Source: a virus
Taxonomy: Duplodnaviria; Caudoviricetes
Strand: one strand, 5' to 3'
Length of the DNA stretch: 27,251 nt
IMG/VR virus record: IMGVR_UViG_3300020042_001735
Location: 1 to 27,251 of that record
The notes beneath the pieces were generated by a model. The model did no database searches. It saw nothing but the letters and a program-made list of their open reading frames with translations, and was not told where the DNA came from. Numbering within the stretch: position 1 is the first letter of the stretch; each line of letters starts with the position of its first letter. The translations under genes were made by a program, and so were the position numbers. Below are positions 74 through 22,900 of this stretch, in pieces.

Positions 74-754
74 ATGTCTAACTATACCAAATCGACCGAC
101 TTTGCATCTAAGGACTCATTATCCTCCGGCAATGCGGCCAAGATTGTTAAAGGTACGGAGATTGATACCGAGTTTAATAATATCGCCACGGCAATTGCTA
201 CTAAAGCAGACTTGGCAAGCCCAGGCTTTAGCGGAACTCCGACAGCGCCAACAGCGTCGTCTGGCGATAGCACAACCAAGTTGGCAACAACTGCATTTGT
301 GGCAGCGGCTATCACGACAGGTATTGCAGCTGCATACCCAGTAGGCTCAATATATATTAATGCTTCAGTTGCTACTAACCCAGGCACGTTGCTTGGTTTT
401 GGTACATGGACGGCGTTCGGCGCTGGCCGTGTCATGGTTGGTTTAAATGCTGGCGATGCTTCATTTGATACTGCTGAAGAAACAGGTGGCTCTAAAGATT
501 CCATTGTTGTTAGCCATACTCACACGGCTACATCAAGCGTCACTGACCCAGGCCACTTGCATTCTTTAGGGAGAAGCAGAGAATCAGGAAATGATGGTGG
601 ATGGGGTGCTGGATCAACTTCTGTATCTGGTAATACTGGATCAGCAAGCACTGGAATTTCTGTTTCAACCTCAATATCGTCAACTGGTTCAAGTGGTACT
701 AACGCAAATCTTCAGCCTTACATCGTTGTTTATATGTGGAAGCGTACAGCATGA
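74..754 (+). CDS. Short tail fibre / baseplate gp10-C-like structural protein
   Basis: SD-like AAGGGG upstream. It has the fibre motif SPGFSGTPTAPTA..TKLATTAFV, the segment YPVGSIYIN..NPGTLLGFGTW..GRVMVG, an HTH/HLH metal-binding tip and a C-terminal NLQPYIVVYMWKRTA. Confidence 0.8.
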   Translation: MSNYTKSTDFASKDSLSSGNAAKIVKGTEIDTEFNNIATAIATKADLASPGFSGTPTAPTASSGDSTTKLATTAFVAAAITTGIAAAYPVGSIYINASVATNPGTLLGFGTWTAFGAGRVMVGLNAGDASFDTAEETGGSKDSIVVSHTHTATSSVTDPGHLHSLGRSRESGNDGGWGAGSTSVSGNTGSASTGISVSTSISSTGSSGTNANLQPYIVVYMWKRTA

Positions 755-1077
755 GCGCCATACTTGAAAATTTGGGTGGTGATATTACTCACCACTTTTC
801 AGATGGATTGTATGCCAAAGAAGCGTTTGTCCCTGCTGGCACGGCCATACTGAAGCACACGCATAACTTTAGCCATCTATCTATTTTGGCTACAGGTAAA
901 GTAGCGGTTATGAAGGGCGACGTTATTGAAATAATTGACGCGCCAGCGTGTATAGAAGTTAAAGCGAACGTAGTTCACGGCATTAAGGCTGTGAGCGATT
1001 GTGTATGGTTTTGTATCCATGCGACGGATGAAAAAGACCCGTCTAAGGTGGATGACGTTTTAATTAGAGGGGAATAG
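751..1077 (+). CDS. Cupin-fold (RmlC-like) small protein
   Basis: The ATG at 751 overlaps the upstream TGA (ATGA), so this start is preferred to 736. It has cupin motifs HHFSDGLYAKEAFVPAG, KHTHNFSHLSILATGKVAV and a later H (VVHGIKA..WFCIH). Confidence 0.75.
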   Translation: MSAILENLGGDITHHFSDGLYAKEAFVPAGTAILKHTHNFSHLSILATGKVAVMKGDVIEIIDAPACIEVKANVVHGIKAVSDCVWFCIHATDEKDPSKVDDVLIRGE

Positions 1078-1078
1078 T

Positions 1079-2152
1079 ATGCCTTTTATCATTGGCGGCG
1101 CGGCGTTGCTTGGTGGGTATTTGCAAGGACAATCAGCACAAAACGCAGCTCGAACATCCGCAGACGCGCAAGAACGCGCAGCACGATTAGCGGCTGAAGA
1201 AGCGAGATTCCGACCAATCGGAATGACCACGCGATTTGGCTCTAGTCAGTTTACGATGGACCCAAAAACTGGCCGCTTATCTGCTGCTGGTTATACGGTG
1301 TCGCCTGAACTTAGGGCGTATCAAGATCGCTTGATGGGGTTGAGTAATCAAGCATTGACTGACGCTGAAGCCGCTAGAGGTCAATATCTTCCTTTAACTG
1401 GCGCTGCGTCTAGCCTGTTTAACTTAGGCAACCAATACTTAGCGCAATCACCTGAAGAAGTTGCCGCCAAATATATGCAAGGGCAGCAAGATTTGTTAGC
1501 GCCAAGTCGCGAACGTCAATATGCGCAGCTACAAAATCAATTGTTTAATACTGGTCGCGGTGGGTTAGCCGTTGGCGCAACTGGTACACGCCCAGGTGGC
1601 GGTGCTGGTCTTGGTGCTAGTAATCCAGAAACAGAAGCGTATTACAACGCAATAGCGCAGCAAGATGCGGCATTGGCCGCTAATGCTCAAGCTGAAGGTC
1701 AACGTCAATTAGCGTTTGGCACTGGATTGTTTGGCCAAGGCGCTGGATTGTTGGGTCAGTTCCAAGCTGGTCAAGTCAGTGCTTTGAACCCATTTTTCAC
1801 AACTCTTGGCGGCGTTGGTACTTTAGAAGAACTTGGCCAACAACCATTTAATTTAGGTGTAAATCTTGGTGGTAGAAACACCAACCCAACAGGCGCACAA
1901 GCGCTATTTCAAGGCGGTCAGGATGCAGCGTTAGCGATGCAGCGAGCTAACTCCTACGATCCATTTGCAACTGCACTGCAAGGGGCTGCAAGTAACCCAT
2001 ATATTCAACAGGGCGCGCGCAGTTTATTTGGTGGTGGTTCACCAAATGCGCCAATTGAAGATAGAAATGCTTTTAGTTTCACCGGCGGCGGGGCATATCC
2101 TTCAGGCACTGGCGGGGGTGGTGGTGGCGGTGGCTACGGACGTTTTTACTAA
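1079..2152 (+). CDS. DNA ejection/pilot protein (P22 gp7-like role), module A
   Basis: Hydrophobic Gly/Ala N-terminus (MPFIIGGAALLGG) followed by an Ala/Gln-rich helical body and a Gly-rich tail. It is the first of three consecutive internal-virion-type genes. Confidence 0.65.
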   Translation: MPFIIGGAALLGGYLQGQSAQNAARTSADAQERAARLAAEEARFRPIGMTTRFGSSQFTMDPKTGRLSAAGYTVSPELRAYQDRLMGLSNQALTDAEAARGQYLPLTGAASSLFNLGNQYLAQSPEEVAAKYMQGQQDLLAPSRERQYAQLQNQLFNTGRGGLAVGATGTRPGGGAGLGASNPETEAYYNAIAQQDAALAANAQAEGQRQLAFGTGLFGQGAGLLGQFQAGQVSALNPFFTTLGGVGTLEELGQQPFNLGVNLGGRNTNPTGAQALFQGGQDAALAMQRANSYDPFATALQGAASNPYIQQGARSLFGGGSPNAPIEDRNAFSFTGGGAYPSGTGGGGGGGGYGRFY

Positions 2153-5376: not shown

Positions 5377-5395
5377 AGTTTAAGAGGAAATTGCG

Positions 5396-6007
5396 ATTGA
5401 CCCGCTTACTATTCTTGCGGCTGCAAAACTGGCTGCAAGTGCAATTAAACAAGGTTGTGAGTTATATCAGACAGCTAAAGCTGATGGTATGGAGCTGGTA
5501 GATGCCTACGGTAAAGTTAAAGATGTGGTTGCTGACATTAGTAGTCATCTGGGACACTTTTTTAAAGCGCATGAGCAGTTGGAAAAGCATGTTCACGAGG
5601 AAGAACTAAAGACTAAAAAAGTACGTGACCCGGAATTATCGGTAAACCAAGAGGCTTTTAACCGGGTCATGGCAGTAAAAGAAATGCAGCGGTTAGAAAC
5701 AGAGTTACGCGAGACCTTAGTGTATTCAGCCCCAAAAGAGCTTGGTGCAATATGGTCATCCTTTGAAGCTATGCGGGACAGGGTAAAAGCAGAACGCGCT
5801 GAAGTACAGCGGCAAGAATTACAGAAACAACAGATGGCAGCTTGGCGAAGAGCAAGAATAGTAAAGAAGGTAAAAGAACAAACGACACTAATCTGTGCAG
5901 TATTGTTCGTAACAGGGTGGTTTTTATGGCTAATGATAATGCTAAGAATGAGTCTGACGTACCGTGGTCTTTACTCATCGCCGTCATCGCTCTGTGTTTT
6001 GTGTTGA
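5396..6007 (+). CDS. Coiled-coil membrane protein of the lysis cassette; probable ATT start
   Basis: The frame is open upstream of ATG 5489 back to TAA 5381. SD AAGAGGA (5382-5388) sits 7 nt before ATT 5396, giving (M)DPLTILAAAKLAASAIKQGCELY. There is a C-terminal TM segment LICAVLFVTGWFLWLMIML. Confidence 0.6.
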   Translation: MDPLTILAAAKLAASAIKQGCELYQTAKADGMELVDAYGKVKDVVADISSHLGHFFKAHEQLEKHVHEEELKTKKVRDPELSVNQEAFNRVMAVKEMQRLETELRETLVYSAPKELGAIWSSFEAMRDRVKAERAEVQRQELQKQQMAAWRRARIVKKVKEQTTLICAVLFVTGWFLWLMIMLRMSLTYRGLYSSPSSLCVLC

Positions 6008-6132
6008 TTATTGCGCTCCCAGTCATGGGGATCATGTATATGGACATGAATAACGCAACAGTAGCAGCGATGGAAGAAATAAAGAAAATGCGTGAACTAC
6101 GCGCCAAAATATTATTAGGAGTACAAGAATAA
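5926..6132 (+). CDS. Small single-TM membrane protein (lysis accessory?), overlapping the upstream gene
   Basis: ATG 5926 is preceded by AGGGTGG (alternative TTG start at 5842). It has a TM segment WSLLIAVIALCFVLIIALPVMGIMY and then a short coiled coil. Its stop overlaps the holin start (TAATG). Confidence 0.6.
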   Translation: MANDNAKNESDVPWSLLIAVIALCFVLIIALPVMGIMYMDMNNATVAAMEEIKKMRELRAKILLGVQE

Positions 6133-6647
6133 TGCTTACAATCTTTTCAACTTTTGTGTCGTTTTTGATGGGCGGTTTGCCTAAGCTGCTTGATTTTTTC
6201 CAAGACAAGTCAGATAAATCCCATGAGCTAAAGCTGGCTCAGATGCAGACTGAGCGCGAGCTACAACTAGCCGCCGCAGGATATGTTGCACAGCAACACA
6301 TTGAAGAAATTAAGTTAGACGAGATTAAGACCCAGACACAATCTGCGGAGAAAGTCTCGCTAATCGACGCACAAAAAGCGGAGATGAATGCAATCTATGC
6401 TCACGACACGTCGCTAAATGAAGGCACATCTAAGTGGATGAAAGACCTACGCGCATCTGTGCGCCCTGTGATTACTTATGGGTTCTTCTTTTTGCTAGTC
6501 GGTATCGACGCTGTGATAGCTTACAAGGGGCTAACAACTGGGGTAGATTTTGTTCAGTTAGCTGAACAATTATGGGATGACGAGACTCAGGCTTTGTTTG
6601 CCAGCATCATAGCGTTTCACTTTGGCGGTAGAGCGTTTGGGAAATGA
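6132..6647 (+). CDS. Holin (GTA 3TM-holin-like)
   Basis: N-terminal hydrophobic helix, W..LRASVRPVITY, two further TM segments and a C-terminal [11 protein letters not shown]. It lies directly upstream of the lysozyme. Confidence 0.75.
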   Translation: MLTIFSTFVSFLMGGLPKLLDFFQDKSDKSHELKLAQMQTERELQLAAAGYVAQQHIEEIKLDEIKTQTQSAEKVSLIDAQKAEMNAIYAHDTSLNEGTSKWMKDLRASVRPVITYGFFFLLVGIDAVIAYKGLTTGVDFVQLAEQLWDDETQALFASIIAFHFGGRAFGK

Positions 6648-7123
6648 TTAGCAAAAAAGCACTTGACATGATTAAGCATCATGAGGGGGTAAGGAATAAA
6701 CCTTACCGGTGCCCTGCCCGACTCTGGACAATCGGCGTGGGCCATGTAATCGAAGCGAATCACGCAAAAGTGCCGTTTGAAGATAGGTTAAGTTTGCCTT
6801 GCCCAGAGGGCTGGAACCGTGTATTTACAATGGAGGAAGTAGATGCCATACTTGCAAAAGACCTTAATCGTTTTGTTGCGGGAGTTTTGCGTTATTGCCC
6901 TAGCGCTATTAATAATCAAAGCTGGCTTGACGCTCTTGTAAGCTTTAGTTTTAACGTAGGTTTAGGTACTCTACAACGCAGCACGCTGCGACAAAAACAC
7001 AACCGGGGCGACCATGCGGGAGCTGCCGAAGAATTTTTAAAATATTGCAAAGCTGCGGGTAAAGTCTTAAAGGGACTAGAAAACCGCCGTAAAGATGAAC
7101 GCGCAATCTATTTAGGGAACTAA
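6644..7123 (+). CDS. Endolysin, GH24 phage lysozyme (muramidase)
   Basis: [18 protein letters not shown] gives an E-x8-C-x5-T triad. It also has [11 protein letters not shown] and [18 protein letters not shown] overlap with the holin. Confidence 0.93.
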
Positions 7124-7124
7124 C

Positions 7125-8603
7125 ATGGCAAGTACCTACTCCAACGACCTACGTATTGAACTTATTGCTAGTGGCGAACAGTCCGGTATTTGGGGCAATA
7201 CTACCAACAATAATCTAGGTACGTTGCTCGAAGATGCAATTTCCGGTACAGCTACAGTTTTAGCAACATCAACAAACTACGCTTTGATCGCCTATAGTGG
7301 TGTAGCAGACGAAGCTAGATGCGCTGCACTTAATTTAAATACGTTAACCAATGGGGCGTTTAATGTATATGTTCCCCCCGTATCTAAGTTATATGTTGTA
7401 GGGAATAGCAGTGCCTATACTTGTTCAATATATGTAAGTACGTCTATTGGTAATACTACAGCCGCCGGTGCGGCATATGTGCTTCCTGCTGGGGCTACAG
7501 CGTCAATATATTGTAACGGAACTGTTTGCATAGATGCTATTAATCAGGTTAGAGGTAATCTTGCAGTAAATGGAAACCTTCCAGTAAATGGAAACCTATC
7601 TATAGGTGGGACTACTACGTTAGGCGCAGACCCTACGTTGGCTTTACAAGCCGCAACTAAACAATACGTTGATACCGCTGTATCTGGAGGAATTCCTTCC
7701 GGTGGCTTAATGATGTGGCCTACTGCATCCTCTCCTACAGGGTGGTTATTGTGTGATGGCTCGGAAGTTTCACGGACAACCTATGCGTCTTTGTTTGGGG
7801 TAGTAAGTACTACGTTCGGTGTTGGGAACGGCACGACGACATTTAATCTACCTAACTACATAAACCGCATGCCGTTTGGCGCAAGTGCCGCCACTACTGG
7901 GTCAGTAACAGGAATTATTGGAGCAGTAGTTACCGGGTCAATAAGTACAGGTGGAGTGCTTACTGTAACCGCAGTTACGCGAGGGGCATTGTATATAGGG
8001 GATATTATTACCGGTACAAACGTGCCAGCCAACTGCACAATTACAGCATTTGGTACGGGTACTGGAGGCGCTGGTACATACACGGTTAGCCCAGCCCCAA
8101 CCTCCGCCATTGGTTCAAGAACTATAACTTCCTCTAGTACAGTACTTAATGTTACCGCTGTGGGTTCCGACACTGTAGCTATAGGACAGGCTTTGGCTGG
8201 TACGGGTATAACTACTGGTACAAAAATTACAGACCTCGGTACTGGTACTGGAACCACTGGCACTTACATCATTAGTACTGCACAGAATGCGGCTAGCACC
8301 ACAATTACACTAACTGCGTTTGTTGGCATCGGGGTAAAAGGCGGTACTTCTGATACGGTTGTTGCAAGCCACACTCATACTGCAACAATTACTGACCCCG
8401 GTCACCAGCACAGTATTCTAATGTCAAGTTCCCAAAACACTAGCTCTGGTACTCCGTCAAAGCTATCAACCACACAAAATCAAACAGGCAATACAGAATC
8501 AGCTACAACAGGTATTACAGCGACGATAGCTTCAGCCGGTGTATCAGGTGTTAACCAAAACTTGCCGCCGTACTTAACTATTAACTTTATCATCAAGACG
8601 TAA
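7125..8603 (+). CDS. Tail fibre with phage tail-collar domain, module B
   Basis: Collar motif [47 protein letters not shown], an HTH/HQH tip and a C-terminal [14 protein letters not shown]. The sequence is T/G/S-rich. Confidence 0.85.
7564..7597 (+). repeat. Tandem repeat, 18-bp period (CAGTAAATGGAAACCT x2), encoding VNGNL units
   Basis: 16 identical bases at 7564-7579 and 7582-7597. Confidence 0.85.
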
Positions 8604-8611
8604 GGCACCTC

Positions 8612-11239
8612 ATGCCATTACAAAAACTCCAATTTCGGCCCGGTGTTAACCGAGAAGGCACTACACTCGCCAATGAGGGCGGCTGGTTTGAATCGGACAA
8701 AGTACGTTTTCGTTCTGGGTACCCTGAGAAAATTGGTGGTTGGGCTGCGCAGTCGTATTCAACCTTTATTGGAACGTGCCGTTCATTGTGGAATTGGATT
8801 ACATTAAAGCAATATAACTTACTTGGTATTGGCACAAATTTAAAGTTTTATGTACAAGATATTGGTGGCGAGTACTACGATATAACGCCACTTAGATTTA
8901 CTTCGGCTGCTGGCGCAGTTGCTTTTGCTGCTACTAACGGCTCCAGTACAATCTTAGTTACTAACGCAACAGGCTCGGGGTTTCAGACAGGGGACTTTGT
9001 TACGTTCAGCGGAGCGGCATCTTTAGGGGGCAACATAACTGCGCCTATCCTAAATCAAGAATACCGAATTACCTACGTATCAAGCACCACCTATACCATC
9101 CAAGCTCGTGCAGTATCTAGCATAGACACCCCCGGTGCCGCTGTTAACGCAAACGCCTCTGATACGGGGAGCGGTGGGGGTTCTACTGTAGCTAAATACC
9201 AAATAGATACAGGTCAGGATATTTTCACGGTTGGTACAGGTTGGGGTGCCGGGCCTTGGTCTAACGGGCCGACTATAAGTACAACGCTGGGTGCAAACCC
9301 TATCGCTACTACAAGCGGCAGCAACGTCATAACAGTTACGCAAACATCCCACGGCTATACAACCACAGCGGGTTCTTTCTTTGTTGGGCAGGAATATCGT
9401 ATTACGTCTATAGGCACTACAGACTTTACTTTAATTGGCGCATCGGCTAATAATGTAGGGCTAACTTTTACTGCTACAGGTGTTGGCTCTGGTACAGGCA
9501 CGGCCTCTATTGCATACGTACTTATTAGTGGCGTTGCGAACGCAAGTGGTGCCCTTGATATAACCTTAAGTGGTGTAACAGGTACAGGCGCGGTAGGTAT
9601 ATGCAGTATTAATGCTGCCAATACAGGAGCGCGTTCTATAGCCGTAAGTGGGGTAACTAGCATAGGTGCAGTAAACACAGTTAATAAAAGTGCGATTAGC
9701 TCTGGCGCGGTTTCTATAACCTTAAGTGGTGTAACGGGTACAGGATCAGTAGTTGGGGTCAATAAAAGTATTACAAAATCAATTGGTGGAGTACCCCTAG
9801 AACTACTTAATGGCGTTAAATTCATAACGGTCACTAACGCAAATACTTTTACGTTCCTACTTAATAACGGACAATTACCTACGGTTAATGCTACACAAAC
9901 AGTCGCTTCTGCCGGCGGCTCAAGTGTTGTTGTTAACCCGCAAAATCCATTAACTAGCACTGGAGACCCTGTTCGTGGTTGGGGGGAGGGCTATACAACA
10001 GGAGTCCCATTACAGCTTCGTTTATGGAGCCAAACAAATTTTGGAGAAGAATTATTGTTCTCTCCTCGCGGGGGTGGGCTTTATAAATGGGCACCGGGGC
10101 CAGGGTCAGCACCTGCGTATACCACTCGCGGTACGATAGTAACGGGGACAGATGTCCCAACAGCAATTAATGAAATACTAATGTCCGATCAAAGTCGTAT
10201 TACTATTTGTTTTGGGTGTAATGATTACGGCGAAACCGATTTAGACCCGCTGCTTATTCGTTGGTCGGATGTGGAAGACTATACTTCATGGGACGTATCT
10301 CCTACAAGCCAAGCGGGATTTAATCGTCTATCTTCTGGCTCCTTTATTGTGGGTGCTTTGCAAACCCGCCAAGAAATTCTAGTATGGACAGACGCCGCGC
10401 TTTATTCAATGCAGTATCTTGGGTTCCCATTTATTTTTGGTTTTACCATACTTGCGGAAAATATATCTATTGCTTCACCTAATACTATGGCAACGGCTAA
10501 TGGTGTTACGTACTGGATGGGCACAGATAAATTTTATGTTTACGCAGGTAGGGTAGAAACGTTGCCTTGTTCCTTGCGAACATATGTATTTAACGACATT
10601 AACAGAAACCAAGAGTTTCAATTTTTTGCAGGTGCAAACGAAGGATATTCTGAAGTATGGTGGTTCTACTGCTCTGCTAACAGTGATGTTATTGATAGGT
10701 ATGTAATTTTTAATTACTTGGATCGTGTTTGGTATTACGGAACTCTTACCCGTACAGCATGGCTAGATAGCCCTATTCGTGAGTACCCACAGGCGGCTAC
10801 AGGTAGTAATTTGCTTGTATATCATGAAGCAGCGGTAGATAACGGTGAGACTAACCCACCTTCGCCGATTTCAGCGTATGTCCAATCATCTGACTTTGAT
10901 ATTGGTGACGGGCATAACTATGGATTCGTGTGGCAGATTGTGCCGGATATTACGTTTGATGGGTCAAGTACGCCTACTTCACAAAACCCTAGCGTAGACT
11001 TTATTGTCCGACCAAGACAAAACCCCGGTTCAAACTACGGCAGTGCAAATGCTCCAACAGTACAGTCTACGCAATCATATGCAGGGCAACAAACGTATAA
11101 CGTACAGCAGTTTACTGAACTTGTGTATACCCGAGTACGTGGTCGCCAAATGGCGTTTAGAGTGGAATCAAATACGTTAGGTACTCAATGGCAATTGGGC
11201 ATCCCTAGAATGAATGTTCGTCCTGACGGTAGGAGATAA
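8612..11239 (+). CDS. Tail hub/stabilisation protein (P22 gp10/T7 gp12-like role) with inserted beta domains
   Basis: N-terminal MPLQKLQFRPGVNRE..DKVRFRSGYPEKIGGW and Trp-rich propeller-like motifs (IRWSD, EILVWTD, YWMG, EVWWFY, RTAWLD). C-terminal RVRGRQMAFRVES..WQLG..RPDGRR. Confidence 0.7.
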   Translation: MPLQKLQFRPGVNREGTTLANEGGWFESDKVRFRSGYPEKIGGWAAQSYSTFIGTCRSLWNWITLKQYNLLGIGTNLKFYVQDIGGEYYDITPLRFTSAAGAVAFAATNGSSTILVTNATGSGFQTGDFVTFSGAASLGGNITAPILNQEYRITYVSSTTYTIQARAVSSIDTPGAAVNANASDTGSGGGSTVAKYQIDTGQDIFTVGTGWGAGPWSNGPTISTTLGANPIATTSGSNVITVTQTSHGYTTTAGSFFVGQEYRITSIGTTDFTLIGASANNVGLTFTATGVGSGTGTASIAYVLISGVANASGALDITLSGVTGTGAVGICSINAANTGARSIAVSGVTSIGAVNTVNKSAISSGAVSITLSGVTGTGSVVGVNKSITKSIGGVPLELLNGVKFITVTNANTFTFLLNNGQLPTVNATQTVASAGGSSVVVNPQNPLTSTGDPVRGWGEGYTTGVPLQLRLWSQTNFGEELLFSPRGGGLYKWAPGPGSAPAYTTRGTIVTGTDVPTAINEILMSDQSRITICFGCNDYGETDLDPLLIRWSDVEDYTSWDVSPTSQAGFNRLSSGSFIVGALQTRQEILVWTDAALYSMQYLGFPFIFGFTILAENISIASPNTMATANGVTYWMGTDKFYVYAGRVETLPCSLRTYVFNDINRNQEFQFFAGANEGYSEVWWFYCSANSDVIDRYVIFNYLDRVWYYGTLTRTAWLDSPIREYPQAATGSNLLVYHEAAVDNGETNPPSPISAYVQSSDFDIGDGHNYGFVWQIVPDITFDGSSTPTSQNPSVDFIVRPRQNPGSNYGSANAPTVQSTQSYAGQQTYNVQQFTELVYTRVRGRQMAFRVESNTLGTQWQLGIPRMNVRPDGRR
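9559..9744 (+). repeat. Three-unit direct repeat, 78-bp (26-aa) period, inside the tail hub gene
   Basis: 9559-9588 and 9715-9744 match at 29/30 nt (TATAACCTTAAGTGGTGTAAC[A/G]GGTACAGG). A degenerate copy starts at 9637. Confidence 0.85.
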
Positions 11240-11241
11240 TT

Positions 11242-11541
11242 ATGGCTGTAGGCATACCAGCGTTTCCAATGGCCCCTATTGAGTACGATCAAAAATACCA
11301 AGACCAACTTAATAATATTCTTCGCCAATACTTTACGCAAACTAGTAACCCCGGGCAGGTTGCGGGGTCTGCATCAGATGTGGGAACTGCACGAGTAGCT
11401 GCGGGGATGACTTTTAATAGGCCACTAGGGACAACCCAGATTTATAGTTTTGCCACCCAAGCGGATTTAGCTAACCTTCGTGTGGGCGATGTGTATGTAG
11501 ATACGTCGGCTAGTAATGTTCTAAAGATGAAAACGTCATGA
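11242..11541 (+). CDS. Small tail-associated structural protein
   Basis: SD AGGAG upstream. N-terminal PMAPIEYDQKYQDQLNNILRQYF and C-terminal LRVGDVYVD..VLK. It directly follows the tail hub gene. Confidence 0.6.
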   Translation: MAVGIPAFPMAPIEYDQKYQDQLNNILRQYFTQTSNPGQVAGSASDVGTARVAAGMTFNRPLGTTQIYSFATQADLANLRVGDVYVDTSASNVLKMKTS

Positions 11542-11915
11542 CCCCTCAAGACCGTGCCCTTATTATGGTGTATGAGTCTGTAAAGCACCGCTTGACAGTT
11601 GGCATGGCTGAGTATCTAGAAGCATTAAAAGATTGGGATGTGATACCGCTTACCGAAGATGGGCAAGTAATTGGCGGTGTATTGTTAAAAGGTAACGAAA
11701 TTCATGTAGGATATGGGGTTAAACCAAAAAGGTCTATTCGGGCGTATATTCGGTCTATTCTTGGCGGTGTAGTAGATAAATATGGCTGGGCGGTAACGCA
11801 AGTACAAGAGGAAAACCACGCTGGGCTACGGTTCTGCGAAAGGTTAGGATTTATTAAATTCGGCGCACAAAACGGTACAATACTACTACGTTGCGACAGG
11901 AGTAATTACGCATGA
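11538..11915 (+). CDS. GNAT-fold acyltransferase-like protein
   Basis: C-terminal GNAT signature VQEENHAGLRFCERLGF and a beta-hairpin DGQVIGGVLLKGNEIHVG. ATGA overlaps at both ends. Its position matches P22 gp14/T7 gp13-like genes. Confidence 0.7.
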   Translation: MTPQDRALIMVYESVKHRLTVGMAEYLEALKDWDVIPLTEDGQVIGGVLLKGNEIHVGYGVKPKRSIRAYIRSILGGVVDKYGWAVTQVQEENHAGLRFCERLGFIKFGAQNGTILLRCDRSNYA

Positions 11916-13792
11916 GAATACCAAATAAATTTAATGGTTATAGCCGAGATGGCATACGTCTATACAACGATCCAGTTACGGCTGCGGCTATTGCGGCTGC
12001 GGGTACTAGCACTGCTACTATGGCGGGTACAGCTTTGTTGGGGACGGGTGCCGCTGCCGCTACCGCTGCCGCTCCGTTACTTCAGGGTATAGCAGCAGGT
12101 ACTACTTTGGCTGGCTATGGATCAAACTTGGCGGCGGCTTCTTTAGCCTCTGCTCCCACTGCCGCTGCTCCCGCTGTTATTCCTGCTTCTGGAGTGGCGT
12201 CTGGATTTGATGCCGCTAAGTATTTAGCGAACTCGGGGCTAGGTAATGCGCTTCCTTCCGCAAGTCAAACTGCTATACAACAAGCGGCTACAGGTGCGCC
12301 AGCAAATTTTCAAGCTCTTGGTCAAGCGCAAGCGGATATATTAAGTAAAATTGCACCAAACGCTACACAAACAGCTAACGCTGTCCCTGTTACGCCTACT
12401 TTCCAACCCCCTACACCTATTGTAGAAAACACTTTTCTTAACCCTACTATTAGTGCTCCCGGTACTTCTCCCGCCGTGCAATTAGCTACACCTAAACCAG
12501 CAAATACACCCGGCTTCAATCCTTATGATGCTTTAAGTAACCTACCCAAAAGCGAAAGCGATGCAATTGCGCAAGCTAATAAGGCCATAGAAAATAATGG
12601 CATGACCGGCAACGTATTGAGTGATTTAGAAACGTTAATTCGCAAACCAAACTTTACGAACTTAAAAGCATTCGCTAACGAAAACCCATACACAACAGCG
12701 GCTGGTGCTTATGGTCTATATAAGTTAATGCAGCCGAAACCAATAAAAGAAAGAAATGAGCCGCAGTACCAACGCCCATACAGCAACACAACACGGATTA
12801 ACCCAAATGTGGATTATTACAGGCCATATAGCGGGGGTAGCACTGCCGAGCGTACTTACTTTACGGGTGGTTTAGAAGCGCAACCTATTTACCGTGTGGC
12901 TGAGGGTGGATTAATGTCGTTAGCTGCTGGCGGTACAGTAGAAACTATGTCGGCTGCAAATGCAGTAGGTCAAAACATGGACTACCCACAAGCAGGGTTG
13001 CAGACGTCGTTATATAGCAACCCAATGATGCAGCGCCCTGTATCAACGGATGTAATTAAACAAGGTGTAGATACTAACGTTGACCCGTATACTGGCGAAG
13101 AACGTATGGCTGCTGGCGGTATGGCTAGTGGCGGGGAAGCTGGTGGGTATAAGTATGACTACAACCCAAAGACAATGCAGTTTACGCAATTAAACGATCC
13201 GGTGGCTGATGCCGCTCAAAAAACAGCAAATGACGCAATTATGTATGGTAGCGTTGCCTTTCCTCGATCACAAACAACCGCAGCCCTTACACCATTTACA
13301 CCTGTAGTAACAGGTGGTATAGCTACACCTACAGGTCAAGTCGATCAAGTAGCCCCGATGCAACAAGCGCAACCAATGCAAGAACAGCCTTACCCTGCTT
13401 ATCAAACTCCTGAGCAGCAATTAGGTTTAAATGGGTTCTACGACTATATGAACCAGCAACTAGGTGGTATGGGTGGGTATAAAGGTTTTGCTGGCGGTGG
13501 TATGGCTAGTTTAGGAGGGTACTCAGATGGAGGTCGTTTACTGCGTGGGCCGGGTGATGGTGTCAGTGATTCTATCCCTGCTTCTATTGGCAATCGTCAG
13601 CCCGCTCGTCTTGCTGATGGTGAATTCGTTATACCCGCCCGGATTGTGTCAGAGATTGGTAATGGCTCCACCGAAGCTGGTGCTCGTAAGCTGTATGCAA
13701 TGATGGATAGAGTGCAGAAAGCTAGAAAAAAATCTACTGGCAAAAATAAAGTAGCCGTTAACAGTAAAGCCGAAAGGTTGTTACCCGCATGA
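11912..13792 (+). CDS. Internal virion/ejection protein with AxGG motifs, module B
   Basis: Ala-rich N-region, low-complexity middle with several AxGG motifs, and a globular C-terminal block GPGDGVSDSIPA..ARLADGEFVIPA..GNGSTEAGARKLYAMMDRV. Confidence 0.65.
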   Translation: MRIPNKFNGYSRDGIRLYNDPVTAAAIAAAGTSTATMAGTALLGTGAAAATAAAPLLQGIAAGTTLAGYGSNLAAASLASAPTAAAPAVIPASGVASGFDAAKYLANSGLGNALPSASQTAIQQAATGAPANFQALGQAQADILSKIAPNATQTANAVPVTPTFQPPTPIVENTFLNPTISAPGTSPAVQLATPKPANTPGFNPYDALSNLPKSESDAIAQANKAIENNGMTGNVLSDLETLIRKPNFTNLKAFANENPYTTAAGAYGLYKLMQPKPIKERNEPQYQRPYSNTTRINPNVDYYRPYSGGSTAERTYFTGGLEAQPIYRVAEGGLMSLAAGGTVETMSAANAVGQNMDYPQAGLQTSLYSNPMMQRPVSTDVIKQGVDTNVDPYTGEERMAAGGMASGGEAGGYKYDYNPKTMQFTQLNDPVADAAQKTANDAIMYGSVAFPRSQTTAALTPFTPVVTGGIATPTGQVDQVAPMQQAQPMQEQPYPAYQTPEQQLGLNGFYDYMNQQLGGMGGYKGFAGGGMASLGGYSDGGRLLRGPGDGVSDSIPASIGNRQPARLADGEFVIPARIVSEIGNGSTEAGARKLYAMMDRVQKARKKSTGKNKVAVNSKAERLLPA

Positions 13793-14235
13793 ATAATTAC
13801 GGAAAACTAGAATGGTTTGGTGGGAATCAAGATGCACTAAGCGTGTATCGGATGTTAGTTGATCTTGCGCACATTTGGGATGATTTAGTTGATAAAGATA
13901 AAGAAGTAACGGAACAAACAATTAACAACGCGTTTCTTATCAGTCTTGTGTACTTACCTTTGAACCCGTTTTATCAAGCTATCCAACGCGACATCATGCC
14001 AATGTGGATAACAGTAGTGTCGGCATATCAGACAGCAAACAAGTTTGAACGTGAAAAAGATGAACGTGGGTTAGAAGCGGCACACATACTTAGATATGCG
14101 GCGGGTAACATCTTAGCTTATGCAATACATGTGTGTGTTGGGCCTGAAAAAGCCGCCGAATATATACCAGAAATGTGGAAAGATGTTGTTAACGAGAGTT
14201 TTGCGGAGTACCGCGAGGGGCACTTAAATGCTTAA
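13789..14235 (+). CDS. Alpha-helical DDxxD protein, isoprenoid-synthase/prenyltransferase-like
   Basis: AHIWDDLVDKD (DDxxD at 13879-13893) lies at the end of an amphipathic helix, in an all-helical-looking 148-aa protein. The CDS is solid and the function is an inference. Confidence 0.55.
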   Translation: MNNYGKLEWFGGNQDALSVYRMLVDLAHIWDDLVDKDKEVTEQTINNAFLISLVYLPLNPFYQAIQRDIMPMWITVVSAYQTANKFEREKDERGLEAAHILRYAAGNILAYAIHVCVGPEKAAEYIPEMWKDVVNESFAEYREGHLNA

Positions 14236-15238
14236 ATTTCTAAAATTATTATTTTCCCCGGACTGGGCTACCTTTAACTTTGGTGGTGGTGGCGGTGGCG
14301 GTGCTCCTGCAAATACAACTACGTCAACTACTAACGTTGCGCCATATTTACGACCTAATATGGAACGGCTTGCGGGTAAAGCCGAGGCGGTATCTAATCA
14401 AGAATATATACCATACGGTGGTGAGCGCACTGCTGGGTTTTCTAGTTTGCAGAATCAAGCATTTAATGAAGCCGCTAATCTAGGCCCTGCAAAACAAATT
14501 GGGGTCGGTACGCAGTTAGCAGGTCAAGCGGGACTTGGTTCGTTAATGGCTGGGCAGAATTATCAGAACATGGCAACCAATCCCGGCGCTATGCAAGCCT
14601 ATATGTCGCCATACATCCAAGGGGCGTTAAACCCTGCAATGGATGAAGCCCGTCGCCAATCTGAAATTACTGGGATGCAAAACAACGCGGCTGCTATTAA
14701 GGCAGGAGCCTTTGGTGGTAGTGGTAGGTATATACAAGAGTCGGAACGCCAGCGTAATTTAGGGCAATTGCAAAACAATATCTATGGCACCGGTATGCAG
14801 AACGCATTCCAAAACGCCCAGCAAGCGCAACAGTTTGGAGCGCAGTTAGGTCTACAGGGATATGGTCAAGGGCTACAAGCTGCTAATACGCTAGGTCAAT
14901 TAGGCCAGACTCAGTTCGGTCAGCAACAAGCGGCTATGAACGCACGTCAGCAAGCGGGTGCCCAACAACAAGCATTAGAGCAGCAAAAACTGAATGTAGC
15001 CTATCAAGACTTTATAAATCAACAAAACTTCCAAAAGAATCAATTACTTTTCCTAAACGATATATATCGCGGCATGCCCGGATCACAAACAGTAAACAAC
15101 GTGTATCAAGCCCCGCCGTCTATGATTTCTCAAGGCGCAGGTTTAGGCATGGCGTATTTAGGTGGGCAGAAAGCTGGGTTGTTTGCTAATGGTGGATTGA
15201 CAGGGCTTGCTTTGCATAATATGGCGAAGGGTGAATAA
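14228..15238 (+). CDS. DNA ejection/pilot protein, module B
   Basis: Leader followed by G7 and T-rich TTTSTT, then YIPYGGERTAGFS, AYMSPY, AGAFGGSGR and a Gln-rich helical body. Confidence 0.7.
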   Translation: MLKFLKLLFSPDWATFNFGGGGGGGAPANTTTSTTNVAPYLRPNMERLAGKAEAVSNQEYIPYGGERTAGFSSLQNQAFNEAANLGPAKQIGVGTQLAGQAGLGSLMAGQNYQNMATNPGAMQAYMSPYIQGALNPAMDEARRQSEITGMQNNAAAIKAGAFGGSGRYIQESERQRNLGQLQNNIYGTGMQNAFQNAQQAQQFGAQLGLQGYGQGLQAANTLGQLGQTQFGQQQAAMNARQQAGAQQQALEQQKLNVAYQDFINQQNFQKNQLLFLNDIYRGMPGSQTVNNVYQAPPSMISQGAGLGMAYLGGQKAGLFANGGLTGLALHNMAKGE

Positions 15239-16932: not shown

Positions 16933-19900
16933 ATGGCGAACGTATTTGACCAGTTTGACACCAAACAAAAAGCTGGCAATCCGTTTGACCGGTTTGATCA
17001 AACACAACAGCCGCTAATAGCAAACCCGTTCGCGGATCAAAAAGCTGCCGAACCTCCAGTAGAACAATCTAATCTGTTGGAGTTTCCTAAAGGGATTGTA
17101 CGTGGGGGGATTAACCTACAAAGTATTCCTGCTAAGCTACAGCAACGGTACTACGCGCTCGGCATGGAGGTTCCAGATACAGCCCTCAATGCGTTTGACA
17201 AGATTGATGCCGGGGAACTTAAATCTAAGAAAGAAATTAATAATTTTCTTGGGGTAAAGAGAGATATTACCGAGGACATAACAGGCGCACTGGGGTTAGA
17301 AAAAGGAAGAAAAGACCCCGGAGAAGTTTTACGTTCTATTGGTCTAGCACAAAATTATCTAAATGCCTCCCCAGAAGACCGTAAGAAATTACGTGACGAA
17401 ACGCAAGCCGAGCTGCAAGAAAAGTCTAAGGGTTTTGACGAAGCGGTTGCTTATAGCGAGAAAATTAAGAAGCGAGCAGAACCATATGCTCCTCGTCTAA
17501 AAGACTTTACTGATATAAGTAGGGAGTCTCCGGGTGCGTTTATTGGTGACGCGGCTTCGTACTTTGGAAGTAAACTGGGTGAGGCCATACCGCAAATGGT
17601 GCCAGTTATTGCTTCAGGCGTGGTTGCAAAAAAGCCGGGCTTGATTGGGACTAGTATCGGCATGGAGCTTGGCCCTGCTACACAAGACCGAGTTGACTAC
17701 ATCACTAAGCAAGTACAGAACGAGCCTGATCCAGAAAAACGCGCCGCTGCTATTGCTCAATATGTTCGTGATACAAAAGATGTTACGCTGACTGCGGCTA
17801 CGGTAAGCGGACTATTCGACGCTGTTATCGGCCCTGAAGCCGATATTGCTAAACGCATGTTGTCTGGGGAACTACGGCAACAAACCCGCAAAGAAATTTT
17901 AAAGGCTATTCCAAAAGTTGCGGCAAAGAGTGGCGCCCAAGAATTCTTAACTGGTGGTTTGCAAGAGACCGTGATGATTAATGCCGAGCGTATGCTTGGC
18001 GAACAAACCGGCGATGCGTTAACTAAAGAAAACATCATACGTGTCGTTGACTCTGCGTTGTCGGAAGCTATCGGCGGTCTTGGTATGTCCACCACAATTG
18101 AAGGTGCGCGGGCGCTAGGAGCTAAAAAGAATATTGCCGAAACGAATACTCGTGAAGGTCAAGCAATCCGTGATCTTGATGCACTTGCAGATAGAGAAGA
18201 ACAAGGTGCCGGTGCCGCCGAAACCACAACTAAAAAATCTAGAGCCGCTAAAACTACAAAGGCTGCGCCACCACCACCACAACTACGTTCGTTGGACAAC
18301 TTAACTGAAGAAGAAGTAAGTGTTATCCAGCGTCAGTTGTATGCAGAGCTTGGTAGACCTGCAAATGAACAAGAACTTCGGAAGGCTTTCGATGACTACA
18401 TTGTGGAGCAAAACGCGGGTAATACAACTGAGTCCGGAACAGATAGAACTGGCTTTTCGGGTGTTGGCTTTGGATTCGAGGACACAGGGGTTTCTGATAC
18501 CGGAACCACTACAACATCTACTTCTGGAGGATTGGATGGAACTAGCGAGGCTACTACAGTCTCTGGAATACCAAAAAGAAATGAGTCAGCTTCATTAGAA
18601 GAACAAGAAGACGCCGCGTACGATTCGCTTTTGCAAGCGCAGCAGCTACAAGATGATGTAATGGAAGAAGGTGGCGTTGCATGGACAGAATACCAAGCCG
18701 CCGAAAAAAGATTTAATTCGCTTACTGAAAATACTCCAGAAGAAGAGCAGGTAGCTGCAAACCAAGCATTTGAAGAAGCAAAGCAAAAATTAGATGGGAT
18801 AGGAGTTAGACTTAGAGAATCTATATATAAAGTAGAAGAAGCAACGCAAATATTTAATGATTTAAACGCGCTCCTAAAAGAAGCTAGGACGAATGCAACG
18901 CCAACCGCAGAAGAAGTAGTAAATGAAGAAGAAGTAAAAAGCGGCGTAGACATAGCCGCGCTCGAACAAGAAGAACTTGCTCGACACGATGCAGTAAGAA
19001 ATATTGTAGAACAACAAAAAGCGCTTCTGACTAAGGCTGGTCGCATCCCAGCAAAAAATTCCCCTGCCCGTAAAAAGTATGAAGAGCTAGAACAGCAGCG
19101 CATAGAAGCGCACTGGGATTGGGTTGCGTCTGAGAAAAAATTGATGGACGCTAAAGCCGCCGAAACAAAAACACAAGAAGATGCGGAGTTAGCAAATAAC
19201 CCTGAAGTAGCTGCTGCTATACAAGAAGTCGAAGCCGCAAATAATGCGTACTTTTCGGCAAAGTCTGATGAAGAAAGAAATACGTTAGCGCAAAGGAGAC
19301 GGGAAGCGTATGCTAAGTTGGGGCAAGCCAAACTTAAAGCTAAAGGGGTTTTAGAGTCGGTTGATACCGAAGATACTTCTGCTGATACACAGGATAAAGA
19401 CGTACTACCTAATCTTGCGCGTCGTTTATCGCAGATAGATACTTCTCTTGCGGACATGGTGCCGCAAAATCAAAACGGCATAAACCGAATTAACCAGTTG
19501 TGGAGAGACGGCGCAATAACGTATTTTGAGTACACCCGTGAGATGAATAAACTTACGGAGCGTCTTGCTGAACAACGCGCAATGCGTAATGCTACTAGGT
19601 CTAATTTACCAAGAGAGCGTGGATTCGGTAGAGTTGTAAAAGCATTAGAAGATGCAGCTAGACAAGGAAGAATTTCTCCACAGATGGCTGACATGGCAAT
19701 CTGGTTCCTTACGCAAAATCGTGCGATGGCTGCGAATTTAGCTATATCTATTGCCGAACCTACTGGTTCTAGGGGGGCTATAGCTGAGAGCGCTGACGGT
19801 ATATACCAACGAACACAACGCCTTATAAACCTGTTCCTAGTTCGTGATAAAAACGGTGTGTATAGGGAGATGGATGATCTTACAGCGGTGCATGAAATAC

Positions 19901-22900
19901 TGCATCATATGGAGAGGATGCTCCCTGACCATTTACGTAAGCTAATACGAAATGAATGGCGCGTAAGACTTGAGGTTACTACAAAAGAAGCAGAGCAAAA
20001 GCGCGATAAAGCTAACGCAGATATAGAAAAATACACTAAAGATTTAAACAGCTTTGACGTTCGTAAACGTAATGAAGCCCAAGATAGATTAAGACGGGCG
20101 CAAGATGAAGTTACACGCCAAGAAAATATATTAAATTACCTCCGTGTTGTTGCGGAAGCAAATGCTACACAAGATGGTAGCGCGTATACACGCGCATTAA
20201 ATATGATTGTAAAGGGGGAAGTACCCCGTGCGCTTTATGCGTTAATGAACCCTTCAGAATTTTGGGCGGTTACTGGCTCTAATATTATTGCCGGTAGGTA
20301 CGGCGCAGCCTACCAAAATAGATTCCGTAGGATCATTCAGTATTTAAGAGAACTTGTACAAAAAGTAAAAGAAGTTTTTGCTTTACCAAGTGATGATCCT
20401 ATTATCCGTGGAATAAACGCCGTGTTGCGTGGGGATGGTACGTTTGTAAGCCGTGAAATGTTGATGGACGGTGAGAACATAGTGTTCCCGAATATAAACC
20501 CAAGCAAGGGCTGGACTACGGCTGAAACCGAAATTAGTCCAGAAGAGAAAAGACTGCAAGAACAGTTTAATAAAACCGGAGACTTACATCCTTCCGTGGT
20601 AGAAGCTATAAAGAATAACGACCTAAACGGCGCGTTAAAAATACTTTCGGAGAATATGACTGGGTTCTATGGTGAGCTAGCCACAAAACTTTTGTCTCTC
20701 AACCTGCAAACTACTATTAGTTTTGATAATACTGAACAAGTTGCGCAGCAAGTAATTAACAAACTTGTAGGGCCGCAAATTAGTCGCATCATGAGTTATT
20801 TAGAAGTTGCCCAACCTAAAATATATGCGCAGTATTTTTATGATTACCGTAACCCTGAAAATATAAATAAAGTAGCTTCTGGATTAAACACGCTTATGTT
20901 TTCAGTCCTTGCGGGTAAATACGCAACTGTAGTAACAGGACTTGGCCCAATTGCAAATGAAATTAGAGATGCTGCTACCGTATATAGGCAGATGTATAAC
21001 GCTAAATATATGCCGGGCGCGTATTTTAATACACTTAATACTATTACCTTAGATAGTAAAAGGATACGTGGGCTTGGTAATCGGATACTTTTACATGAAG
21101 TAATTCATGCGGCTACAGTTTCATTACTAAAAGCAGACTCGTCTCAACTTACCCCTGAGCAACTTGCTGCGCGAGAAGAACTTATAAAACTTTTTCAAAT
21201 TGCTAAAGACAACATAAAAATTAAACACTACGGGTTTACTAATATAAAAGAATTTGTTGCCGAACTATTTACTAATGAAGAATTTTATAAAGACTTAAAA
21301 AAGATTCCATACCCAGCGGCAAAAAATTACGCTGCCGAATCTGGTATGTTGTCTAAATTTATTAACGCTATCTTCAAACTAGTCGGCTTTAACAATCTTG
21401 CTAGTCGTGCAATGACGGAAGCCGAGAAGTTATTTACTGCCACTCGATACCAAGAAACTAAACCTTCAGGCCCAGACTTTGCTCAAGGTAAGAAACGAGG
21501 TAAGCGGGTACGTGGGCCTATAACTACCCCTAGCACTTATCGAGATGCAGAGAGCCAACAAGGTTCAATTTTGCAGACTATGAAAGATGCATACGAAGGT
21601 CGTATGGAGTGGAAAGATGCTATAAAAATTATTGGCCCTGCTCTATGGGACTCTAAAAATACTTTAATGAGGCAAGTAACTCTCCCGGTGCTTAACCTAA
21701 CTCATCTTGAGGATTTGACTCGTACAAAGTTTACGCAACTTACTGGCGCCCTTACAATCATTCGAGACATGGTTGCGTATCGCGCTAAGAAATTAAACGT
21801 TGCTTCGCAGATTACCGCCGACTGGGTTAGGTTACAGAATAAGAATTTTGCGCAATCTCAGTTGATGGGTCGCATCATGATGGAAGCCACTATACGTGGT
21901 ATTGACCCAGATACCGCGCAGCCCGGTGCGTTAAACGCCGAACTGCTAAAAGCTTGGAATACTCTTAAACCTGAGTACAAAGATATTTATAGACGCGTTC
22001 GTAACTTCTATTCTGATTCTGTCAATCGGATGGTTCGGGAGATGAAACGTAGGGCATCGGCTATACAAGACCCTGTGGCGCGTGCAGAAAAAATACGCCA
22101 GATTGACGCTCAGTTCGGCCCAGATAAATTAGTCAAGCCCTATTTCCCTCTACGTCGTTTTGGTCAACACTGGTTCCAAGTGGGTAAAGGCGAGTTCAAA
22201 GAGTTTTACGAATTTGAAAGCCCAATAGCGCGAGACATCGCCATGAAAAAACGCATCCGGGAGTTATCGGGTGGGAATGAAAAGCAAAAAGCTTTGGTTA
22301 AAACGGTGCGTAAAGGTAATGGAATCTCAGAACTTTATGGTAAAAACATAGGTACTACTCAGGTACTAAAAGATGTTAATGAGTTAGTACAGAACATTTC
22401 GACTACAGATGTAACTGACCTAAAAAACCAGTTAGAAGATAGCCTGAATCAGCTTATCTATATATTGCTACCTCAGCAAAGTATGCGGAAGATGTTTATC
22501 AACCGTAAAGCAATTCAAGGTGCTAGTTCAGACATGCTTCGCGTATTTGCTACCACTGCGGTGCATAGTGCGTATCAGCAGTCTCGGTTTATGTACGCAG
22601 AGAAATTCTTACAGAACTTAAACAACGCACGAAGCGAAATCGACGGTGCTGAAACGGCTGGTATGTTGAATGCCGACCAAGCAGCCATGCATAGAGACTT
22701 TATTAACGAAGTAGAGAAACGTGTTCCTACTATTATGAGTAATGAGGATACAAGCCTTGTTGCGCAGGTAGCAGGTAAAGCCTCAGAGATCACGTTCTAC
22801 TATATGTTATCGGCTCCATTTACAGCAATACTTAATACAATCGGCGCGGTGCAGTTGGCTATGCCGTATATCGGTGGGTCTTATGGGTACCTTAAAGCAA

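Follow-up and report, generated by a model that had tools for sequence, protein, structure and literature searches.

In the window, the 27,251-nt stretch of viral DNA that was analysed as a whole, four open reading frames follow one another on the plus strand: a 125-aa gene (GNAT-125; 11538..11915), a 626-aa gene (EP1; 11912..13792), a 148-aa gene (DDX; 13789..14235), and a 336-aa gene (EP2; 14228..15238). All four were found where the preliminary description had placed a translationally coupled array; the first three carry an ATGA at the preceding stop, and EP2 overlaps DDX by 8 nt. Near-identical contigs covered parts of this region in four of four runs, and all 30 bins were covered in run X4. 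Both larger proteins had been called ejection proteins. EP2 can be retained as an ejection or pilot protein, as it matched phrog_4287 (DNA ejection protein; E 2e-17), with no match in a PDB sequence search. EP1 had no match in Pfam, PHROG, or NCBIfam, and for this reason its label as the probable first ejection protein was drawn from gene order and its N-terminal motif; its conserved C-terminal domain (residues 520–626) has at least 8000 relatives.

The GNAT fold of the 125-aa gene was supported by a confident AlphaFold model (pLDDT 92.5), for which Foldseek returned GNATs throughout (best E 1e-5). The canonical CoA pyrophosphate-binding motif A of GNATs is R/Q-x-x-G-x-G/A. In the GNAT-125 alignment, motif B was present and the canonical motif A was absent, apart from an incomplete version in the member that diverges most. 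Motif A was intact in the 153- and 150-aa GNAT families that occupy the same type of slot, both of which are Pfam-grade. Six of the 42 GNAT-125 family members weakly matched Phage_T7_Gp13 (PF11090; best E 0.0026), the nearest named cluster in the Atlas was PF11039 (score 0.93), and HHalign gave a weak similarity to T7 gp13 (probability 40%) and no detectable similarity to P22 gp14. By gene order, GNAT-125 lies directly upstream of EP1 and after the tail genes, as is the case for IVP-A, a small gene whose non-structural product has an acetyltransferase fold and which precedes gp14 in T7 (as gp13) and gp7 in P22 (as gp14) and is replaced by an unrelated family in phiRIO-1; the available portion of that study names no IVP-A substrate (Hardies et al., PMC4819975). 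The likeness thus consists of a small GNAT-fold gene ahead of the first internal virion or ejection protein, given the role proposed for EP1. Unlike the IVP-A arrangement, the operon here has two slots, an IDS-like protein and cupins are among the replacements, and the slot family matches the first residue of its partner.

The DDX protein, which matches phrog_21390, is all-helical and resembles an IDS or prenyltransferase of half the usual size. Its D31-D-L-V-D35-K-D37 segment (13879..13899) is a predicted Mg/diphosphate-binding motif, and across 134 rows D31 and D35 were conserved in 100%, D32 in 97%, D37 in 96%, and R102 in 99%; a second Asp-rich motif was absent from the 148-aa chain in the alignment. 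The AlphaFold model reached a pLDDT of 95.9, and the top nine VIA rows were all isoprenoid-synthase-fold chains (Z 7.2–8.5, rmsd 3.5–4.4 over 129–146 aa). The best of these, with an rmsd of 3.8 over 137 aa and a Z of 8.5, a value that by the tool's own guide is common among helical bundles, was a 188-aa heptaprenyl-synthase chain, which we take to be a non-catalytic small subunit. Nothing significant was returned by Foldseek or a PDB sequence search, and no real family by Pfam or NCBIfam scans. HHalign against IDS gave a probability of 1.4%, with the best register still landing on the first Asp-rich motif; named neighbours in the Atlas (0.76–0.77) were IDS-like families, to be read as leads only. 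The predicted complex of a homodimer with Mg scored 0.23 against a mark of 0.42, a value that counts neither for nor against any reading. The proposal of a DDxxD prenyl-type gene held for the invariant DDxxDxD, and the predicted IDS-like fold is a moderate match that was not significant in Foldseek. Fusions to SAM methyltransferases and a tandem duplicate were found among DDX variants. The family comprises 671 representatives at 50% identity in metagenomes and occurs in 1 of 50,697 GenBank phage records, which may be why it has gone unstudied. In 20 of 47 genome loci, one DDX branch is adjacent to adhesin operons; three adhesins encoded next to bacterial DDX genes had neither Cys nor a leader at their N-termini.

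Both ejection proteins begin with an extension. In EP1, a 19-aa leader of type A (11912..11968), a predicted propeptide ending in R-L-Y-x, precedes D-P-V-T (11969..11980), the predicted mature N-terminus and predicted target of GNAT-125. In EP2, a type B leader (14228..14278) precedes Phe and seven Gly residues (14279..14302), the predicted mature N-terminus and predicted target of DDX. Both extension sequences had been read correctly, and by its inferred register the second leader probably spans 17 rather than 18 aa. Neither ORF N-terminus contains an internal Met upstream of the DPVT or the Gly run. The likely cut register was set by one DDX subclade, whose partners carry either leader A followed by Cys-Asp/Glu (n=12) or a leaderless Met-Cys-Asp start (n=2); leaderless relatives start at the position matching the predicted mature N-terminus. 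Among 78 distinct copies of leader A, majority-base frequencies were 0.75, 0.74, and 0.51 at codon positions 1, 2, and 3, a pattern by which the leaders are conserved as peptides; an RNA or DNA element was ruled out, as third codon positions vary. A leader was present before 77 of 78 bulky or acidic first residues and before 33 of 63 small ones. Gly was rejected as a mature start in the window, and because the predicted starts are Asp (EP1) and Phe (EP2), the N-myristoyl-type chemistry on Gly that had been invoked earlier is a misfit here. Two further candidates were discarded, namely prenylation of Trp in leader B (leaders A and C contain no Trp) and DDX as the peptidase that cuts the leader (leaders and DDX each occur in the absence of the other).

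Across relatives, the family of the slot enzyme matches the predicted first residue of the next ejection protein, and slot genes matched in this manner to predicted ejection-protein ends are found in a large group of uncultured short-tailed phages. GNAT-125 was followed by a leader and D-P-x-T/S in 37 of 38 distinct downstream proteins, the leader before DP being type A in 21 and an unrelated, longer one in 16, from different phage lineages. In a tally of 141 EP2 proteins, with register and first residues assigned by hand, the DDX clade of the window was followed by F, M, I, L, or V in 71 of 73 proteins, these five residues interchanging and Gly never occurring (0/73). Other DDX clades were followed by Cys, Pro, or Ser, the 153-aa GNAT by a leaderless Met-Cys (17/17), and the 143-aa GNAT family by Met-Gly-Lys (7/7); the match was looser for the 134/135-aa GNAT-like families (n=27; Gly 16, hydrophobic 9, other 2). 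Small cupins of the type found in module A, the left part of the window, preceded Met-Pro in 75 of 77 readable loci. The wider statement that all cupins pair with Met-Pro was rejected, as it applied to none of 10 slot cases in cultured phages, which belong to a larger cupin subfamily and all showed Met-Ser or Met-Thr. Among cultured phages, Vibrio phage VPMS1 has a cupin ahead of Met-Ser-Trp, Achromobacter phage CF418P1 has DDX ahead of Met-Gly-Cys, and gp14 of T7 begins with Met-Cys. GNATs, DDX, or cupins filled the slot across related and unrelated ejection proteins, and 99 of 136 EP1 genes had no slot partner of this kind.

The match persisted when ancestry was taken into account. On the EP2 tree the slot family switches at least 41 times, and among eight independent pairs the first residue changed in the same direction in 6.5 and in the opposite direction in none (median p 0.016). 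First-residue class changes 10 times on the DDX tree, versus at least 50 in 200 shuffles, and one DDX clade had 37 of 40 Cys-type partners drawn from seven unlinked protein groups. With leaders A and C only, the first residue was hydrophobic in 29 of 29 cases behind DDX versus 5 of 20 behind GNATs. These counts bear on the idea that the enzyme gene simply recombines as one block with the 5' end of the gene after it, the enzyme acting elsewhere, on a host target or a small molecule. Co-inheritance would be expected of overlapping genes, DDX clades are monophyletic, and the same folds are used otherwise, as in the DDX branch by adhesin operons and a cupin relative before a MazG-like gene. However, the leader, which separates the matched residue from the enzyme gene, is swapped while the farther residue stays, so that simple linkage does not explain the match, and F, M, I, L, and V replace one another behind DDX, yet Gly does not appear. 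We consider block inheritance of this kind improbable.

The leaders themselves followed a different pattern. It had been proposed that a leader recruits its cognate enzyme, as in RiPP pathways, and that the enzyme then attaches a lipid to the freed N-terminus so that the protein can cross the membrane. This recruitment was not supported because the same leaders stand behind different enzymes: leader A occurs behind GNAT-125, DDX, and a further three GNAT-like families; the DDX clade of the window is paired with leaders A, B, C, and F, at least four types in all, or with no leader; leader B is exchanged for A, C, or other leaders within a single enzyme clade; and some enzyme families have wholly leaderless partners. 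The covariation of enzyme and leader that the proposal predicted failed to appear for DDX and leader A in independent pairs (median p 0.375), the first residue covarying instead. A coarse association does exist, with leader D accompanying the 150-aa GNAT in 7 of 8 cases and leader B enriched with DDX; over 106 rows, Cramer's V was 0.58 between leader type and enzyme family and 0.50 between first residue and enzyme family. Leader type is thus not wholly independent of enzyme family, and conservation of the leaders as peptides would also suit recruitment. RiPP pathways further differ in that the partners here are proteins of 336 and 626 aa rather than short precursor peptides, and in that the leaders are not tied to one enzyme family and many pairs have none. 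Taken together, we regard leader-directed recruitment as very improbable.

The match between family and first residue suggests that slot enzymes likely tag the tip of the injected protein. In the reading we prefer, to which we assign a probability of roughly 55%, a host protease cuts a propeptide like that of P22 gp7, and the newly exposed N-terminus is modified by the neighbouring enzyme before packaging. The protease would remove a leader of 17–35 aa, as P22 gp7 and the comparison of leadered with leaderless relatives suggest, and the leader would mainly be required where Met removal cannot expose the first residue (Asp, Phe, Met, Ile, or Leu). The slot enzyme would then recognise the exposed end: GNAT-125 may acylate Asp-Pro on EP1, DDX with Mg and an allylic diphosphate may prenylate the alpha-amine of Phe on EP2, and the Cys-linked DDX clade may prenylate the Cys thiol. 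Speculatively, the tag could help loading, shield the end, or assist membrane insertion at ejection. According to the available text on P22, the host removes 20 aa from gp7 (PMC4992974), an amber fragment of mature gp7 from particles gave the N-terminal sequence Lys-Gly-Gly-Lys-Gly, and about 60% of the burst remains when the leader is deleted (PMC8402733). The system described here is similar in having an extension of ~20 aa on an ejection protein downstream of a slot gene, with a Gly-rich start next. It differs in that several unrelated, interchangeable leader families occur, that cleavage is predicted, and that the mature P22 end could be sequenced; by eye, the leaders showed no evident sequence likeness to that of P22.

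That the P22 terminus was sequenced implies a free amine in the sequenced gp7 fraction despite the neighbouring gene 14, which is consistent with slot proteins being assembly chaperones. Such proteins would bind the N-terminus and deliver it to the procapsid with no lasting covalent change, their enzyme folds having been recruited as terminus-binding modules. In the available text, T7 IVP-A is needed for morphogenesis and absent from the virion (PMC4819975), which fits the same role, as does the degenerate motif A of GNAT-125, and binding alone would also produce the first-residue match. Points against modification are likewise that GNAT-125 lacks the canonical motif A, that DDX has one Asp-rich motif and a moderate fold match, that the P22 burst stays at about 60% after loss of the leader, and that the first-residue match is loose for the 134/135-aa GNAT-like families. 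However, three unrelated catalytic folds occupy the slot, and catalytic-type residues are retained in the aligned slot proteins, which counts in favour of modification: pure binders would not need the near-invariant DDxxDxD and Arg of DDX, the intact motif A of two Pfam-grade GNAT families, the His ligands kept in cupins, or the methyltransferase fusions. A chaperone role therefore appears unlikely, though clearly less so than recruitment by the leader.

In the ComQ-ComX system, the gene for the enzyme adjoins that for its peptide substrate. DDX likewise lies beside the gene for its predicted peptide substrate and, with its DDxxD and predicted IDS-like fold, resembles the trans-IDS-like peptide prenyltransferases ComQ, PalQ, and ChrPC, which combine an isoprenoid-synthase-like helical fold with DDxxD. 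According to the available part of the source, the characterised members all act on Trp, the ComQ/PalQ type has a second Asp-rich motif with an upstream Gln for Trp recognition, and PalQ acts on terminal residues (PMC13290415). In contrast to these enzymes, DDX is about half-size, has one Asp-rich motif, and is phage-encoded, and most of its predicted targets lack Trp (Met-Gly-Trp in 3 of 135 rows only). Another point of comparison is AgeMTPT, a methyltransferase-prenyltransferase fusion from cyanobactin pathways that reportedly prenylates the alpha-amine of a hydrophobic residue in the peptide once the leader is gone and is said to have an ABBA-type fold and small RiPP substrates. The proposed alpha-amine prenylation after leader removal and the DDX fusions to SAM methyltransferases are shared features, while the IDS-like fold and the size of the substrates set DDX apart.

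More tentatively, and at less than even odds, podophages may possess an interchangeable N-terminal modification code, in which DDX proteins would be new half-size phage protein prenyltransferases that help the first ejection protein enter the membrane by lipidating its alpha-amine (as in the window) or a near-terminal Cys (in other clades); bacteria would have domesticated one branch, placed next to giant adhesin operons. In the literature covered, which included few subscription papers, no account of ejection proteins being acylated or prenylated was found. T7 gp13 and P22 gp14 share an acetyltransferase fold and are established factors in morphogenesis. The first-residue match opens mass-spectrometry tests for the IVP-A substrate and for how soluble, capsid-packed proteins insert into membranes, and enzymatic tagging of the tip of an injected protein, if demonstrated, would add to phage infection a chemical step that has not been described. 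Should DDX prove to be a prenyltransferase, it would represent a minimal N-terminus-lipidating enzyme with residue-specific variants (Phe/Leu/Ile/Met, Cys, Pro, and Ser) that extend beyond Trp, the only acceptor reported for IDS-like peptide prenyltransferases.

The cupin-pilot pair that had been cited as a repeat of the same logic exists on the plus strand of module A, with a cupin (736..1077) in the same slot followed by a leaderless pilot-like protein that starts Met-Pro (1079..2152); its origin from the same phage is doubtful. Module A probably derives from a different phage and was joined to module B at about 5396, the probable chimeric or recombinant join lying at 5380..5396, the start of a shared gene. 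None of the module B relatives fetched aligns left of 5380, one (L081) is 99.8% identical to the window from 5396 and different before it, and contigs of runs X1, X2, X4, and X13 align to the window only from 5396, those of X1 and X13 with 133 other bases ahead of that position. Module A (2500–5395) was thinly covered in four runs, which proves nothing alone, as the runs were chosen on a module B-dominated stretch. The pilot-like protein had no family match in Pfam or PHROG, and the cupin matched Cupin_2 below the cut-off (E 9e-4). One cupin relative was located before a MazG-like gene, and in relatives of the pilot-like protein the preceding slot was occupied by GNAT-like or DDX genes instead.

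The four translationally coupled ORFs of the array were confirmed, all on the plus strand, in the order GNAT-125 (125 aa, 11538–11915), EP1 (626 aa, 11912–13792), DDX (148 aa, 13789–14235, with the DDxxD motif), and EP2 (336 aa, 14228–15238). Tail genes lay upstream and two further large proteins downstream, the final one with an LPD39 domain; the window was the entire 27,251-nt virus record, and near-identical copies of the array region occurred in public freshwater runs. EP2 matched phrog_4287 ('DNA ejection protein') and DDX matched phrog_21390 (unknown), and neither GNAT-125 nor EP1 had a family match; thus, of the two ejection proteins proposed in the preliminary description, EP2 was supported by homology, and EP1 is assigned this role from its position. 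The ~100-aa C-terminal domain of EP1 (13471–13792) was very widespread (at least 8000 relatives) but had no Pfam, PHROG, or NCBIfam model; the N-terminal part of EP1 was freely replaced.

Loci were fetched using DDX (80 of 247), GNAT-125 (44), EP2 (80 of 112), and two genes of module A, the left part of the window, namely its cupin (736–1077; 80 of 593) and its pilot protein (1079–2152; 80 of 454), together with distant DDX loci. In loci selected by EP2 alone, the slot directly before EP2 held DDX, any of seven other 133–153-aa families, or none, and its family switched at least 41 times on the EP2-core tree. Two of the seven were Pfam-grade GNATs, four more were joined to these by BLAST at E 1e-3, and the last had a weak acetyltransferase match and nothing else. 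Six loci carried both a GNAT-like gene (135–143 aa) and DDX before EP2, which suggests double modification or ongoing replacement. The available text of earlier reports already describes an IVP-A slot whose protein has an acetyltransferase fold and can be exchanged for one of an unrelated family (PMC4819975), as well as the P22 gp7 propeptide (PMC4992974, PMC8402733).

The covariation of enzyme type with leader type expected in the preliminary description was not supported. At least five unrelated leader types were recurrent (labelled A–E here), and leader A, whose 78 distinct copies show conservation at the peptide level, followed GNAT-125 and DDX as well as three further GNAT-like families. 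The DDX clade of the window preceded leaders B (40), A (27), C (2), and F (2), or none (2). DDX and leader A were not associated in independent pairs (median p 0.375), and a coarse leader–enzyme association remained (V 0.58, 106 leadered rows); judging from these sequences, leaders are not tied to particular enzymes. Leaders were present before bulky or acidic first residues in 77/78 cases and before small ones in 33/63. Methionine aminopeptidase does not expose bulky or acidic residues by Met removal, so near-universal leaders before them are expected if leaders expose residues inaccessible to this enzyme.

What did match the enzyme family was the predicted first mature residue. Behind one DDX subclade, 12 distinct proteins carried leader A followed by Cys-Asp/Glu and two started leaderless with Met-Cys-Asp, so leader A is likely cut after R-L-Y-x. 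This register was assigned manually to 141 distinct EP2 N-termini, after four of the 145 were discarded for mis-called starts; on it, the predicted mature EP2 began with F/M/I/L/V after DDX (71/73), Met-Cys after the 153-aa GNAT (17/17), Met-Gly-Lys after the 143-aa family (7/7), and Gly after the 134/135/150-aa families (23/35), the match being loose for the 134/135-aa families. With the leader fixed at A or C, hydrophobic residues followed DDX in 29/29 cases versus 5/20 for GNATs (Fisher p 1e-8, kinship ignored), and among eight independent pairs, 6.5 had the same direction and 0 the opposite (median p 0.016). GNAT-125 preceded a leader plus Asp-Pro in 37/38 distinct proteins, behind unrelated leaders (checked by eye wherever the pattern matched an earlier Asp-Pro); the sole exception was the most divergent member. 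Among 136 EP1 rows, leader A plus Asp-Pro followed GNAT-125 (14/14), and Met-Pro followed a 101-aa family, GNAT-like by our own reading only (13/13), and cupins (5/6). The unrelated module-A pilot (49 rows, four without a readable upstream gene) started Met-Pro after the cupin (30/32) and Met-Gly after a 97-aa family (7/7); in two rows it carried a long leader behind GNAT-125, and in one it began Met-Pro-Asp behind DDX. A tree built from 135 DDX proteins, 120 of them labelled, showed 10 changes of first-residue class versus at least 50 in shuffles, and 37/40 Cys-type partners, spread over seven unlinked protein groups, fell in a single clade. Such a low number of changes may reflect no more than descent; the stronger argument against linkage is that the swapping part is the leader, which separates the enzyme gene from the matched residue.

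We favor, with a probability of roughly 0.55, a mechanism in which a host protease would cut off the leader, exposing a new N-terminus that the adjacent enzyme would modify before packaging. The alpha-amine is the only nucleophile common to Phe, Met, Ile, Leu, and Val, the predicted targets of the window's DDX clade; in the Cys clade, Cys was kept even at mature position 2 (Gly-Cys, Ser-Cys), pointing to the thiol as the candidate group for modification. The partner was absent in 99 of the 136 EP1 rows; most EP1 genes need none, which counts against modification. The main rival, in which the slot protein chaperones the ejection-protein terminus non-covalently, appears less likely. No report of modified ejection-protein termini was found in the freely available papers searched, and the available text of PMC8954989 and PMC9728967 held nothing further on modification. 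The 2556-aa polyvalent protein (LPD39; 16933–24603) has two HExxH metallopeptidase-like motifs and is a candidate for phage-encoded leader removal.

The GNAT call at 11538 held: the predicted fold was confident (pLDDT 92.5) and matched GNATs (best E 1e-5), with weak Phage_T7_Gp13 matches in 6/42 family members. In the alignment, the canonical CoA-binding motif A was absent, and motif B and the conserved N-E-x-H strand were kept, so GNAT-125 may use a different donor or be catalytically reduced. DDX was predicted to be all-helical (pLDDT 95.9). The top nine hits of a VIA wide search were isoprenoid-synthase-fold chains aligned over the whole length (Z 7.2–8.5, a range VIA itself flags as not decisive for helical bundles), and D31, D32, D35, D37, and R102 were 96–100% conserved (134 diverse rows); Foldseek gave no significant match, and two characteristics of ComQ/PalQ-type enzymes were absent. 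Seven longer relatives were fetched, including one tandem duplicate and four fused to a SAM-methyltransferase-like domain, which NCBIfam confirmed in two of them and which could lie at either end of DDX. On this ranking, conservation, and the longer relatives, DDX looks like half of an IDS-type prenyltransferase and possibly a new, testable enzyme family; IDS-like peptide prenyltransferases are described as Trp-specific in the available text of a review, with phage unmentioned there (PMC13290415). Prenyl transfer by DDX is tentative, and a membrane-anchoring purpose more doubtful still. Nested in the Cys-linked phage clade was a DDX branch in a non-phage chromosomal context (Achromobacter, Halomonas, and relatives), adjoining, at 20 loci, giant adhesin and LapG/LapD-like genes, named from sequence and layout; three adhesin N-termini inspected had neither Cys nor a leader.

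Module A had been described as repeating the same logic. This logic recurs across phages, but probably not within this genome: at 5380–5396, tail/ejection modules from two phages have probably been joined into a chimera. No fetched relative of module B, the part to the right, aligned left of this point; the upstream sequence shared by a contig of 99.8% identity and a close relative differed from that of the window; and contigs of the four runs examined aligned from 5396 only. The best run contained 0.71 of the words of 3000–12500, near the module-B share. Module A probably comes from a second phage, joined where a common gene begins, or else reflects a rare recombinant; a TTG close to 5396, ahead of the ATG at 5489, is the likely start codon of this gene.

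Distant cupins from 11 phage records comprised one in a non-structural context and ten slot cases, whose following proteins started with Met-Ser or Met-Thr (0/10 Met-Pro). A general pairing of the cupin fold with Met-Pro was thereby ruled out; the first-residue rule holds per subfamily, not per fold. These cupins of the IVP-A slot occurred in cultured Vibrio, Ralstonia, Dickeya, Shewanella, and Thalassomonas phages, where they carry the probably wrong annotations 'short tail fiber' or 'adhesin'; four of the proteins that follow them are listed as ejection or internal virion proteins.
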